Part shown: piece after piece, positions 1 to 7,382 of the stretch
Numbering within the stretch: the first letter of the stretch is position 1
How the letters are laid out: every line of letters starts with the position of its first letter
Source of the DNA: a virus
Lineage: Duplodnaviria > Heunggongvirae > Uroviricota > Caudoviricetes
IMG/VR virus record: IMGVR_UViG_2671180360_000012
DNA: 7,989 nt
Strand: one strand, 5' to 3'
Notes under the pieces: model-generated
The model's input: the letters and a program-made list of their open reading frames with translations, nothing else
What the model was told of the DNA's origin: nothing
The model's database searches: none
Program-made: the position numbers and the translations under genes

Positions 1-574
1 GTATGTCTGCAAGGAACTGGTGTATGCCTATGCAATGTGGATCAGCCCGTCATTCCATCTGAAGGTGATCCGTACTTTCGATATGGTAACCAGCGCACCG
101 GAAAAATTATCCGGACAGGCTGCTGACAAGATGCAGGCTGGCGTGATCCTGCTGGACTTTATGCGCCGGGAGTTAAACCTGTCTAACTCTTCAGTGCTTG
201 GTGCCTGTCAGAAACTCCAGGAGGCTGTTGGCTTACCGAATCTGGCACCGCGCTATGCCATTGATGCTCCTGCTGATGCACACGATGGCTCAAGTCGCCC
301 GACACTGTCACTGAGTGCACTGCTGAAACAGTATGGTATACGCCTGACGGCTAATCAGGCATATCACCAGATGGTGAAACTGGGGATCGTCGAGCAGCGC
401 GAACGATACAGCCGTACAGCGATTAACAACATCAAAAAATTCTGGTCGCTGACAGCGAAAGGTTGCATGTTCGGCAAGAACATCACCAGTCCCGCAAATC
501 CGCGCGAGACACAGCCGCATTTCTTCGAATCCCGATTCCCTGAGCTGTTAAAGCTGCTCGATACCGTTCATTGA
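1..574 (+). CDS. Phage antirepressor-like protein (KilA-N-like N-terminus, KilAC/Ant-like C-terminal domain); 5'-truncated by the window edge
   Basis: Frame 2 is open from position 2 to the TGA at 572-574 with no upstream stop, so the gene starts outside the window; the GTG at 20 in the ORF track is internal. The visible N-terminal residues (AYAMWISPSFHLKVIRTF) look like the end of a KilA-N/Bro-N type domain, and the C-terminal ~100 aa (LSALLKQYGIRLTANQAYHQMVKLGIVEQRERY...) look like a KilAC DNA-binding domain. Family assignment is from recalled motif patterns, not a search. Confidence 0.5.
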   Translation, partial: YVCKELVYAYAMWISPSFHLKVIRTFDMVTSAPEKLSGQAADKMQAGVILLDFMRRELNLSNSSVLGACQKLQEAVGLPNLAPRYAIDAPADAHDGSSRPTLSLSALLKQYGIRLTANQAYHQMVKLGIVEQRERYSRTAINNIKKFWSLTAKGCMFGKNITSPANPRETQPHFFESRFPELLKLLDTVH

Positions 575-575
575 G

Positions 576-1610
576 GTGACCGTGAGAGCACTACTGACCC
601 CTGAAATTGCCCCGCGTATGGGGATCGTATTGTTCAGGCCAGGTTCAGAGCTGATGCCCCTGTTTATGCAGGGGCGTGTCCTGCTGGAGCCTGAGCCGGA
701 ACGTTATTCATCTTTCGCCAGTGGTGCCGTTCCGGCGGCATCACAACCGCTGGCGGATGATCCTGCCGTTCCGGCGGCATCACAACCGCTGGCGGATGAT
801 CCTGCCGTTCGGGCCGTGTTCCGCAATGAGGCAGTGATCCGTCGTGCTGGTGGCGTGGAATGTCTTGAAAGCTGGTTACTTCGTGAAAAAGGCTGCCAGT
901 GGCCTCATTCCGACTGGCACAGCGAGAACATGACCACAATGCGACACGCTCCGGGTGCAATCCGTCTGTGCTGGCACTGCGATAACCAGCTGCGCGATCA
1001 GTTCACGGAACGGCTGGAATCAATGGCAACGGATAACTGTGCCCGCTGGGTGTTGTCTGTTGTGCGTCGGGATCTCGGTTTTGATGACAGTCACGTTGTG
1101 ACAATGCCGGAACTGTGCTGGTGGCTGATTCGTAATGATCTGGCGGATGCCTTACCGGAAAGTGCAGCCCGTAAGGCACTGAGATTACCGAAGCCTGTTG
1201 TGCCGTCTGTTACCCGGGAAAGTGACCTTGTGCCTTCGGTTCCTGCCACCAGCATCATCCAGGATAAGGCGAAAAAGGTGCTGGCGCTGAAAGTGGATCC
1301 GGAGTCGCCGGAGTCTTTTATGTTACGCCCAAAACGTCGCCGCTGGGTTAATGAAAAGTACACGCGCTGGGTTAAGACACAGCCGTGTGCATGTTGTGGA
1401 AAGCCAGCTGATGATCCGCATCATCTGATAGGCCATGGTCAGGGTGGAATGGGTACAAAAGCGCATGACCTTTTTGTGCTGCCTTTGTGCAGAAAACACC
1501 ACGACGAACTGCATGCGGATACCGTGGCATTTGAAGAGAAGTATGGCTCCCAGCTGGAGCTGATATTTCGTTTTATCGATCGCGCACTGGCGATTGGTGT
1601 GCTGGCCTGA
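576..1610 (+). CDS. DUF968-family phage protein (YdfU-like) with a C-terminal HNH-like Cys/His motif
   Basis: A 344-codon ORF sits directly between the antirepressor-like gene and Q. The C-terminus carries [44 protein letters not shown], and there is a second CxxC (CWHCDNQL) mid-protein. The start is uncertain: GTG at 576, GTG at 582 (GAGGTG 4 nt upstream), or ATG at 615 are all possible. It contains a 2x39-bp tandem repeat. Confidence 0.7.
725..802 (+). repeat. Perfect 39-bp direct tandem duplication (2 copies) inside the DUF968 CDS, in-frame, encoding a repeated 13-aa unit
   Basis: Positions 725-763 and 764-802 are identical (tgccgttccggcggcatcacaaccgctggcggatgatcc). The next 8 nt (803-810) start a third copy and then diverge. 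The protein reads ...[31 protein letters not shown]... Confidence 0.95.
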
Positions 1611-1627: not shown

Positions 1628-2011
1628 ATGCGTGATATTCAGATGGTTCTTGAACGTTGGGGAGCGTGGGTGGCTAATAATCATGAAGATGTGACCTGGT
1701 CGTCCATTGCCGCCGGTTTTAAGGGATTAATTCCTTCAAAAGTAAAATCTCGCCCGCAATGTTGTGACGATGACGCGATGATTATTTGCGGGTGCATGGC
1801 CCGTCTGAAAAAGAACAACAGCGATTTGCACGATTTATTAGTAGATTATTATGTAGTCGGTATGACATTCATGTCACTGGCAGGTAAGCATTGCTGCTCT
1901 GATGGTTATATCGGGAAAAGGTTACAGAAGGCTGAGGGCATAATTGAAGGGATGTTAATGGCATTAGATATCCGGTTAGAGATGGATATCGTTGTTAATA
2001 ACTCTAATTAA
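1628..2011 (+). CDS. quuD: Late-gene antitermination protein Q (phage 21 / DLP12 QuuD type, 127 aa)
   Basis: ATG at 1628 is preceded by GGAG at 1617-1620 (7-nt spacing); the TTG at 1613 in the ORF track is less likely. The 127-aa product ([39 protein letters not shown]...[12 protein letters not shown]...) matches my recollection of the small cysteine-rich 21-type Q. Its position immediately upstream of the lysis region is canonical. Confidence 0.85.
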
Positions 2012-2200: not shown

Positions 2201-3298
2201 TTAGAACTGGTAAACCAGACCTACAGCAACGATGTCATCAGTGCTTACACCGAGTGCTTTAGTGAAGTCATTTTTGTCAAGCAGGTTGATTTTGTAATCA
2301 ACGAAAGTAGACATATTTTTGTTGAAGTAATAGGTTGCACCTACATCAACATATTTGACTAAGTCCTGATCGCCCCATACTCCAAGATCCTTACCTTTAG
2401 ATTGCAGGTAAGCAACGGACGGACGCAGACCGAAATCGAACTGATATTGTGCAACAGCTTCGAAGTTTTGAGCTTTATTAGCAACGAAGTGATCAGCAAA
2501 TACAGTCATATTCTGGGTTTCAGAATAGGTAGTGGCCAGGTAAATGTTGTTAGCGTCATATTTCAGACCTGCGGCCCAAACTTCTGCATTTTTACCGGAA
2601 GCAAATACTTCAGGAAGAACTTTCCCTGCATTAACTTGAGTGTCGGTACGATCAGATTTCGCATAAGTTGCACCGATACCGAATCCTTCGTATTCATAGG
2701 TAGCAGAGAAACCGAAGCCATCACCGTTACCTTCGGTGTAGTTATCGAAATCGCTACGATCGTTTTTGCCTTGGTACTGAGCAGCAAAGTTCAGACCATC
2801 AACCAGACCAAAGAAGTCGTTGTTACGATAGGTTGCAACACCAGTGGTGCGACCAGTCATGAACACATCTGTTTGGGTCCAGGTATCGCCACCGAATTCT
2901 GGCAGAACGTCAGTCCACGCACCGATGTCGTATGCTACACCGTAGTTACGGCCGTAATCGATTGAGCCGTAGTCACCGAATTTCAGGCCTGCAAATGCAA
3001 GACGGGTTTTGTCTTTGGAGGAACCTTGAGATTCAGCGCGGTTGCCTTTGAATTCATATTCCCACTGACCGAAACCAGTCAGCTGATCGTTGATTTGGGT
3101 TTCGCCTTTGAAGCCCAGACGAACATAAGTAGTATCACCATCATCTGCATCGTTAGAGGAAAAGTAGTGCTTGGCATTAACTTTCCCGTACAGATCCAGC
3201 TTGTTACTGTCTTTATTATAAATTTCAGCTGCCTGAGCAGACATCGCCATCAGTACTGATGCAGCTACAGCAGAAATTGCCACTGTTAATTTTTTCAT
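2201..3298 (-). CDS. nmpC: Outer-membrane general porin of the OmpC/OmpF family, phage-encoded Lc/NmpC type (365 aa), intact
   Basis: The product begins with a classic porin signal peptide ([23 protein letters not shown]|AEIYNKD...), has the conserved porin N-terminal motifs ([31 protein letters not shown]) and a C-terminal Phe (GLVYQF). The sequence matches my recollection of NmpC/Lc. The ORF is full-length with no internal interruption. Confidence 0.9.
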
Positions 3299-6596: not shown

Positions 6597-6605
6597 CAAA
6601 CTACT
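6597..6605. repeat. IS1 target-site duplication, left copy (CAAACTACT)
   Basis: These 9 bp immediately flank the IS1 end at 6606 and are identical to 7374-7382. Confidence 0.9.
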
Positions 6606-6620
6606 GGTAATGACTCCAAC

Positions 6621-7124
6621 TTATTGATAGTGTTTTATGTTCAGATAATGCCCGATGACTTTGTCATGCAGCTCCACCGATTTTGAGAACGACAGCGACT
6701 TCCGTCCCAGCCGTGCCAGGTGCTGCCTCAGATTCAGGTTATGCCGCTCAATTCGCTGCGTATATCGCTTGCTGATTACGTGCAGCTTTCCCTTCAGGCG
6801 GGATTCATACAGCGGCCAGCCATCCGTCATCCATATCACCACGTCAAAGGGTGGCAGCAGGCTCATAAGACGCCCCAGCGTCGCCATAGTGCGTTCACCG
6901 AATACGTGCGCAACAACCGTCTTCCGGAGCCTGTCATACGCGTAAAACAGCCAGCGCTGGCGCGATTTAGCCCCGACATAGCCCCACTGTTCGTCCATTT
7001 CCGCGCAGACGATGACGTCACTGCCCGGCTGTATGCGCGAGGTTACCGACTGCGGCCTGAGTTTTTTAAGTGACGTAAAATCGTGTTGAGGCCAACGCCC
7101 ATAATGCGGGCAGTTGCCCGGCAT
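6621..7124 (-). CDS. insB: IS1 insB' reading frame (transposase catalytic part, expressed as the InsAB' fusion by -1 frameshifting)
   Basis: The 167-codon frame ([29 protein letters not shown]...) matches my recollection of IS1 InsB. Its stop codon lies inside the terminal inverted repeat. Confidence 0.9.
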
Positions 7125-7318
7125 CCAACGCCATTCATGGCCATATCAATGATTTTCTGGTGCGTACCGGGTTGAGAAGCGGTGTAAGTGAACTGCAGTT
7201 GCCATGTTTTACGGCAGTGAGAGCAGAGATAGCGCTGATGTCCGGCGATGCTTTTGCCGTTACGCACCACCCCGTCAGTAGCTGAACAGGAGGGACAGCT
7301 GATAGAAACAGAAGCCAC
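7043..7318 (-). CDS. insA: IS1 InsA (transposition inhibitor / DNA-binding protein, 91 aa)
   Basis: The product is [91 protein letters not shown], with a zinc-finger CxxC...CxxC and a helix-turn-helix. It overlaps the insB' frame at the frameshift window. Confidence 0.95.
7061..7067 (-). other. IS1 programmed -1 ribosomal frameshift heptamer (AAAAAAC on the coding strand)
   Basis: The + strand reads gtttttt at 7061-7067, which is AAAAAAC on the - strand. It lies in the insA/insB' overlap. Confidence 0.8.
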
Positions 7319-7373
7319 TGGAGCACCTCAAAAACACCATCATACACTAAATCAGTAAGTTGGCAGCATCACC

Positions 7374-7382
7374 CAAACTACT
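7374..7382. repeat. IS1 target-site duplication, right copy (CAAACTACT)
   Basis: Identical to 6597-6605 and directly abutting the IS1 end at 7373. Confidence 0.9.

Follow-up and report, generated by a model that had tools for sequence, protein, structure and literature searches.

The stretch of DNA analysed here (the window; 7,989 nt, IMG/VR record IMGVR_UViG_2671180360_000012) covers the late-regulatory and lysis genes of an E. coli lambdoid prophage that is integrated at argU/intD (DLP12). Many complete genomes contain near-identical copies (99.9% identity over 90% of the window). The gene order in a near-identical, RefSeq-annotated prophage is RusA, a KilA-N protein, a DUF968 protein, quuD (Q), a porin, essD and rrrD, followed by rzpD, bor, ybcV, ybcW, ylcI and nohD. 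The window itself begins within the KilA-N gene and, beyond the porin gene, its ORF list comprises the lysis cassette, bor, ybcV, ybcW, IS1 and ylcI. The gene studied here encodes the DUF968 protein, and Q starts 17 nt past its stop codon (Table 1). Given this nin-type location, with the replication genes on one side and Q on the other, the gene would be expected to have delayed-early expression.

Table 1. Features of the window and of the DUF968 gene, with the basis of each assignment.
Feature	Position (nt)	Strand	Basis
KilA-N-domain (KilA-N/Roi-like) gene, 3' part, truncated by window start	1..574	+	PHROG 129, E=6.6e-84; annotation
DUF968 gene, 342 aa + stop	582..1610	+	Between KilA-N/Roi-like gene and Q
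39-bp in-frame tandem repeat	725..814	+	Tandem Repeats Finder
Cys/His cluster C105, H113, C130, C133	894..980	+	Alignment and model
Basic motif P250-K-R-R-R-W255, directly before the nuclease domain	1329..1346	+	Alignment A2; K251 invariant
C-terminal His-Me finger (HNH) domain, residues 256-342	1347..1607	+	
Zinc knuckle C269-A-C-C272	1386..1397	+	Alignment
H280-H281, end of β1	1419..1424	+	Alignment
D296, position of the structural 'N' of H-N-H	1467..1469	+	Invariant, 33/33
C303-R-K-H306-H307-D-E-L-H311	1488..1514	+	Alignment
quuD-type antiterminator Q gene	1628..2011	+	Pfam Phage_antitermQ, E=1.2e-53; RefSeq coordinates
GC-rich hairpin followed by T-run	2062-2045	minus	
Intact nmpC-like porin gene	2201-3298	minus	ORF list
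IS1	6606-7373		

In the near-identical prophage, RefSeq places the start of the DUF968 gene at a GTG equivalent to position 582, and a GAGGT Shine-Dalgarno sequence is located at 573-577. Residues are numbered here along the 342-amino-acid protein that begins at this GTG; the initial annotation counted 344 amino acids from position 576 and its residue numbers are thus two higher. The interval that it singled out (1330-1610) encodes residues 250-342 plus the stop codon; the stretch with the C-terminal motifs is encoded at nt 1383-1514 and the upstream CWHCDNQL at nt 969-992. Between the start codon and this last motif, the gene carries the 39-bp repeat in 2.3 copies, as compared with 1.3 elsewhere. 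The extra copy adds 13 amino acids to a Pro/Ala-rich linker that was predicted to be disordered (pLDDT <50 for residues 51-64), and it was missing from all 18 of the 18 aligned close homologues; the best hits to the repeat segment among complete E. coli genomes cover 72 nt, against 111 nt here. Three singleton database proteins of 406-526 amino acids (P0001-P0003) were considered as possible carriers of additional copies of the 13-residue repeat, a reading that we rejected: they represent this DUF968 protein with long stretches (77-197 residues) duplicated internally, which probably results from misassembly in genomes that have several near-identical prophage copies.

Membership of the DUF968 family was clear. 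The Pfam DUF968 model (PF06147) matched residues 175-341 of the 344-amino-acid ORF with 271.6 bits (E 3.9e-81, cut-off 27.8 bits), and it was also matched by each of the 33 diverse homologues collected in alignment A2. PHROG 96, which is labelled 'HNH endonuclease', gave E=2.1e-176, and three more PHROGs carrying this label (131, 22514 and 7370) matched as well. Pfam HNHc_6 (PF16784) produced a threshold match (26.8 bits vs a cut-off of 26.6 bits) that covers only positions 123-184 of the 204 in the profile, while the match to RecA_dep_nuc (PF16786), the model for P1 Ref, was weak and below the cut-off (12.8 vs 26.9 bits, E 0.14). At E<=1, the window protein did not match the YbcO/DUF1364 model (PF07102; cut-off 29.9 bits), which was matched by one of the 33 homologues (E 0.16); neither the window protein nor the homologues matched the λ NinG/Rap model (PF05766), and none of the PADLOC defence-system models was matched at this same threshold. 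More distant relatives were recovered with a profile of the C-terminal ~93 residues, derived from 27 diverse homologues and compared with hhalign: Gp16 of phage ΦNM1 (probability 95.5%, E 1.5e-8), P1 Ref (75.4%, E 2.4e-5) and YbcO (74.5%, E 2.7e-5). The relation to YbcO was visible only in profile-profile and fold comparisons. The initial annotation had read C-terminal motifs in the order of those of HNH endonucleases; the residues that it quoted are all present in the sequence, the DUF968 and PHROG 96 matches place the resemblance far beyond chance, and the HNHc_6, PHROG 96 and Gp16 comparisons support the relationship to HNH/ββα-Me profiles that it had proposed.

The predicted structure led to the same conclusion. 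Our AlphaFold model, built from the 33 diverse homologues, reached a mean pLDDT of 87.1 and superseded an earlier, poor model built from 19 close homologues (pLDDT 62.5). The C-terminal domain was modelled as a helix (258-265), the zinc knuckle, a first β-strand (β1, 278-281), a loop, a second strand (β2, 299-302), an α-helix (304-312) and two further helices; the ββα-metal core of the His-Me finger superfamily is therefore present in the prediction, as the initial annotation had anticipated. When the whole two-domain model was searched against the PDB with Foldseek, nothing was found at E<=0.001, the top entry being McrA (0.19). The search against predicted viral structures returned small phage proteins of 89-173 amino acids, the top one named DUF968, which match the C-terminal module alone (~90 aligned columns, target-normalised TM-scores up to 0.77); this implies that the C-terminal module is an autonomous domain. 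Structural similarity was highest to P1 Ref (PDB 3PLW; RecA_dep_nuc), the closest structure.

Conservation of individual residues within this domain revealed two sets that vary independently of each other. C269 was invariant in the 33 diverse homologues, whereas C272 was found in 25 and was lost solely together with the ligand at position 306, which is Cys in 14, His in 11 and another residue in 8 sequences. Hence positions 272 and 306 both carry a Cys or His ligand in 25 of the 33 and both lack it in 8, with no mixed case; C303 was also lost in six of these eight. As for the histidines, H281 was kept in 30/33 and H280 in 29/33, and H307 and H311 were each kept in 29/33, with one or both missing in four sequences. 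The four histidines were all intact in 29 homologues, and the remaining four lack two to four of them and keep the zinc cysteines. Because residues are lost jointly within each set and independently between sets, we propose that they form two separate functional sites, predicted by analogy to be a structural zinc set (C269/C272/C303/[C/H]306) and a catalytic set (H280/H281/H307/H311). The eight homologues that lost the zinc ligands 272 and 306 (P0169, P0182, P0198, P0255, P0216, P0219, P0227 and P0254 in A2) kept all the catalytic histidines, which suggests that they have a form of this nuclease domain that does without the zinc.

Colicin E9 is one of the sources from which roles can be assigned to these residues by analogy. 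The others are P1 Ref (PMC3973344) and Gp16. By such analogies, the last ~90 residues would constitute a zinc-stabilised HNH (ββα-metal) nuclease domain whose structural zinc, coordinated by C269, C272, C303 and H306, joins the knuckle to the beginning of the helix. The predicted general base is H281, the histidine at the end of β1. The catalytic divalent metal would be coordinated by H307 and H311, which are separated by one turn of the helix, probably together with H280, and D296 would brace the hairpin. The basic motif that precedes the domain might contact DNA.

Gp16 of the S. aureus phage ΦNM1 (L004:8051-8722) allowed a residue-by-residue comparison. This protein matches HNHc_6 with E 4.9e-117 and is also above the DUF968 cut-off; its nuclease module is homologous to that of the window protein and has in common with it the pattern CxxC...H...CxxHH...H. 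In the alignment, C145/C148 of Gp16 correspond to C269/C272, H157 to H281, and C181/H184/H185/H189 to C303/H306/H307/H311. The two proteins come from different hosts and phage lineages, and they also differ in their N-terminal parts, as the domain of Gp16 is NinB/Orf-like whereas the ~250-residue region of the window protein is unrelated to it and has its own Cys/His cluster. Gp16 was reported to bind dsDNA and to nick plasmid DNA in vitro (Xu et al. 2026, PMC12817073). In that study, cleavage was enhanced by RecA, with which Gp16 interacts; the protein also inhibited the growth of the host, and efficient replication of the phage DNA required it (PMC12817073). Mutations in its zinc finger abolished growth inhibition, H185A and H189A gave partial relief and H157A gave none (PMC12817073); this last result means that a general-base role for the counterpart of H281 is not established even in Gp16.

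The same mutants bear on an alternative in which the DUF968 protein is a non-catalytic zinc-finger protein that binds DNA or has a regulatory role, with the HNH scaffold used for binding only, since the toxicity of Gp16 depends more on its zinc-finger residues than on H157 (PMC12817073). The PdcB protein of phage P1 is a second point in its favour. PdcB is a full-length homologue (~25% identity, E 2e-29) that possesses both Cys/His clusters and whose catalytic positions are replaced (HH by PY, H307 by Q and H311 by E) with the zinc cysteines kept; judging from its sequence, it probably has no nuclease activity. Three to four other full-length relatives likewise keep the zinc cysteines and the N-terminal cluster and have lost catalytic histidines, and the existence of relatives such as PdcB implies that a part of the function of the DUF968 family needs no catalysis. 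Moreover, genes of this family adjoin late-gene activators, Q in lambdoid phages and lpa in P1. However, every catalytic residue is kept in the window protein and in the 29 diverse homologues mentioned above, and the full C-C-HH-D-C-[C/H]-H-H pattern was found in 160 of 185 homologous C-terminal domains, a redundant set that is weighted to close relatives. This conservation argues for selection on catalysis, and we consider a purely binding role of the window protein unlikely. pdcB itself (L005:2501-3544) lies directly upstream of the late promoter activator gene lpa (L005:3633-4085), an arrangement that parallels the adjacency of the DUF968 gene and Q; it is non-essential in P1 (PMC10695390) and was annotated without a function (PMC10067587).

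The N-terminal part of the protein contains a second cluster of Cys and His residues. The initial annotation had noticed a CxxC (CWHC) about 120 residues upstream of the C-terminal motifs and had suggested that it could complete the HNH zinc site. The CxxC is indeed present, but it lies 136-139 residues before C269, and its two cysteines, C130 and C133, belong to a separate cluster with the composition C105/[C/H]113/C130/[H/C]133. The interpretation as an HNH nuclease was supported, but the idea that this motif completes its zinc site was not. All four cluster positions are Cys or His in 32 of the 33 diverse homologues: C130 is invariant, C105 occurs in 32, position 133 is His in 24, and position 113 is Cys in 18 and His in 15. 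The cluster was also present in the eight homologues that lack the C-terminal zinc ligands. The AlphaFold model places it on a β-hairpin (residues 117-130) and the helix that comes next (131-137), an arrangement that resembles a treble-clef-type zinc finger. We propose that it is probably a second, non-catalytic zinc site, and it could be an undescribed zinc-finger targeting module. No Pfam model matched the N-terminal region in any of the 33 homologues, and a comparison of its profile with PDB sequences found nothing. We rejected the possibility that the N-terminal module arose by duplication of the HNH module and then degenerated (hhalign P 0.088, probability <1%).

Other relatives help to define what is particular to the window protein. 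YdfU, encoded by the Qin prophage of E. coli K-12 (PF06147), has the same architecture and shares 55% identity overall. Its last ~110 residues are nearly identical to those of the window protein, whereas the N-terminal two-thirds have diverged and the window copy has the extra 13-residue repeat. Like the window gene, ydfU is directly upstream of a Q gene, ydfT, which is of another type. The DLP12 protein YbcO (PDB 3G27; YbcO/DUF1364), of 96 amino acids, has no N-terminal module and a different spacing of the zinc knuckle; by alignment, its corresponding residues are H32 (equivalent to H281), D47 (equivalent to D296), C55, C58 and H59. In Ref, the region preceding the nuclease domain is disordered and basic, not a folded domain.

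Assignment of these proteins to the HNH or His-Me finger nucleases has precedents. A zinc-finger HNH motif was described in DUF968 proteins by Curtis et al. (2014, PMC4118853), who reported fusions of the domain to Erf, Rad52 and RusA. On the basis of the treble-clef structure of YbcO, Kaur and Subramanian (2016, PMC4999995) predicted that this protein functions as a nuclease. Jablonska et al. (2017, PMC5714182) placed DUF968 (YdfU) together with DUF1364 (YbcO, 3G27) in group 7 of the His-Me fingers, noted RusA, Q and antirepressor genes as neighbours of this group and suggested that it acts in recombination. In phage records of GenBank, the gene is named 'HNH endonuclease', 'YdfU family', 'DUF968' or 'hypothetical'. 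As these papers, the PHROGs and several GenBank annotations already state an HNH or His-Me finger assignment, the inference made in the initial annotation rediscovers a published classification; it is correct but already known and ordinary. The present analysis makes modest additions, namely a table of ligand co-loss in which two Cys/His clusters stand apart as independent, a mapping of individual residues onto those of the recently characterised Gp16, and the recognition of P1 PdcB as a full-length homologue that appears, from its replaced residues, to be catalytically dead.

Taken with the gene context, it is reasonably likely that the DUF968 gene encodes a two-module protein, made up of a zinc-stabilised His-Me finger nuclease domain and an N-terminal targeting part, that would most likely act in phage recombination or replication by nicking or cleaving DNA in a metal-dependent manner. 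A nickase or endonuclease in one of these processes is favoured because of the properties of Gp16 and of Ref, which cleaves only RecA-bound DNA (PMC3973344). The most likely function of the N-terminal two-thirds would be to bring the nuclease to DNA or a partner protein; as this region is unlike the corresponding parts of Gp16 (NinB-like) and Ref (disordered and basic), the targeting may differ from that of these two proteins. By comparison with P1 Ref and ΦNM1 Gp16, the DNA on which the window protein acts might be branched or bound by RecA.

A narrower version of this explanation is a RecA-dependent nuclease that would cut only, or mainly, at RecA filaments or D-loops and would thereby stimulate recombination or suppress host replication. 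By analogy with Ref and Gp16, a dependence of the window protein on RecA is plausible; in this specific form we nevertheless regard the explanation as somewhat improbable. Even more speculative, and in our view doubtful, is the idea that the long-form DUF968 proteins constitute a distinct class of targeted nickases, in which an HNH domain like that of Ref and Gp16 would be guided by the N-terminal zinc module to DNA that is bound by RecA or being replicated, and dead paralogues such as PdcB would keep the targeting alone. If this were true, the recurrence of these genes directly upstream of late activators (Q, or lpa in P1) might indicate that they act at a set time, when early expression gives way to late expression.

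Gene position also invites comparison with λ Rap (NinG), a predicted His-Me finger structure-specific endonuclease (PMC5714182) whose gene is similarly found upstream of Q in the nin region. The DUF968 protein might accordingly act in the role of Rap, as an endonuclease of branched DNA or Holliday junctions. In support of this idea, the role in recombination proposed for group 7 was likened to that of NinG and the RecA-dependent endonucleases (PMC5714182), and the reported fusion partners of DUF968 domains are Erf, Rad52 and RusA (PMC4118853). However, the likeness to Rap is one of position and fold class only, given that the Pfam NinG model was not matched, and the reference prophage harbours the RusA resolvase two genes upstream. 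With RusA in the same prophage type no resolvase is missing, so we rejected a simple replacement of RusA or Rap, and a function in the role of Rap seems improbable to us. The targeted His-Me finger nuclease outlined above remains our preferred reading.

Phage HNH domains have also been connected with DNA packaging, and the window protein could in principle assist packaging and the cleavage of cos as a terminase-associated HNH protein of the HK97 gp74 type; packaging proteins with an HNH domain are widespread (cited in PMC12817073). Genes of that kind adjoin those of the terminase, whereas Q, the porin gene, the lysis cassette, bor, ybcV, ybcW and ylcI are interposed between the DUF968 gene and nohD. 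λ-type terminases are not known to need an HNH partner. We rejected this alternative on gene position and consider it extremely unlikely.

The gene type is very common. A 111-nt segment (nt 715-825) matched 2,344 of 5,426 complete E. coli genomes, and the protein matched 186 phage records, including Stx2-converting phages, SfIV, ST64B and mEp460, as well as 3,052 cluster representatives at E<=0.001. Thousands of genes would therefore gain an annotation from a clear nuclease assay.

Two further features of the window deserve mention. The porin gene located between Q and the lysis genes is an intact nmpC/ompC-like gene of 365 amino acids, and the hairpin with its T-run on the same strand (Table 1) looks like the porin terminator; the copy in DLP12 of K-12 is interrupted by IS5. 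An IS1 element of 768 bp, with terminal inverted repeats of 23 nt, is inserted between ybcW and ylcI and is flanked by a 9-bp direct repeat, CAAACTACT, that corresponds to target duplications at 6597-6605 and 7374-7382. This element is absent from the closest reference prophages, whose coverage of the window is limited to 90% for this reason.
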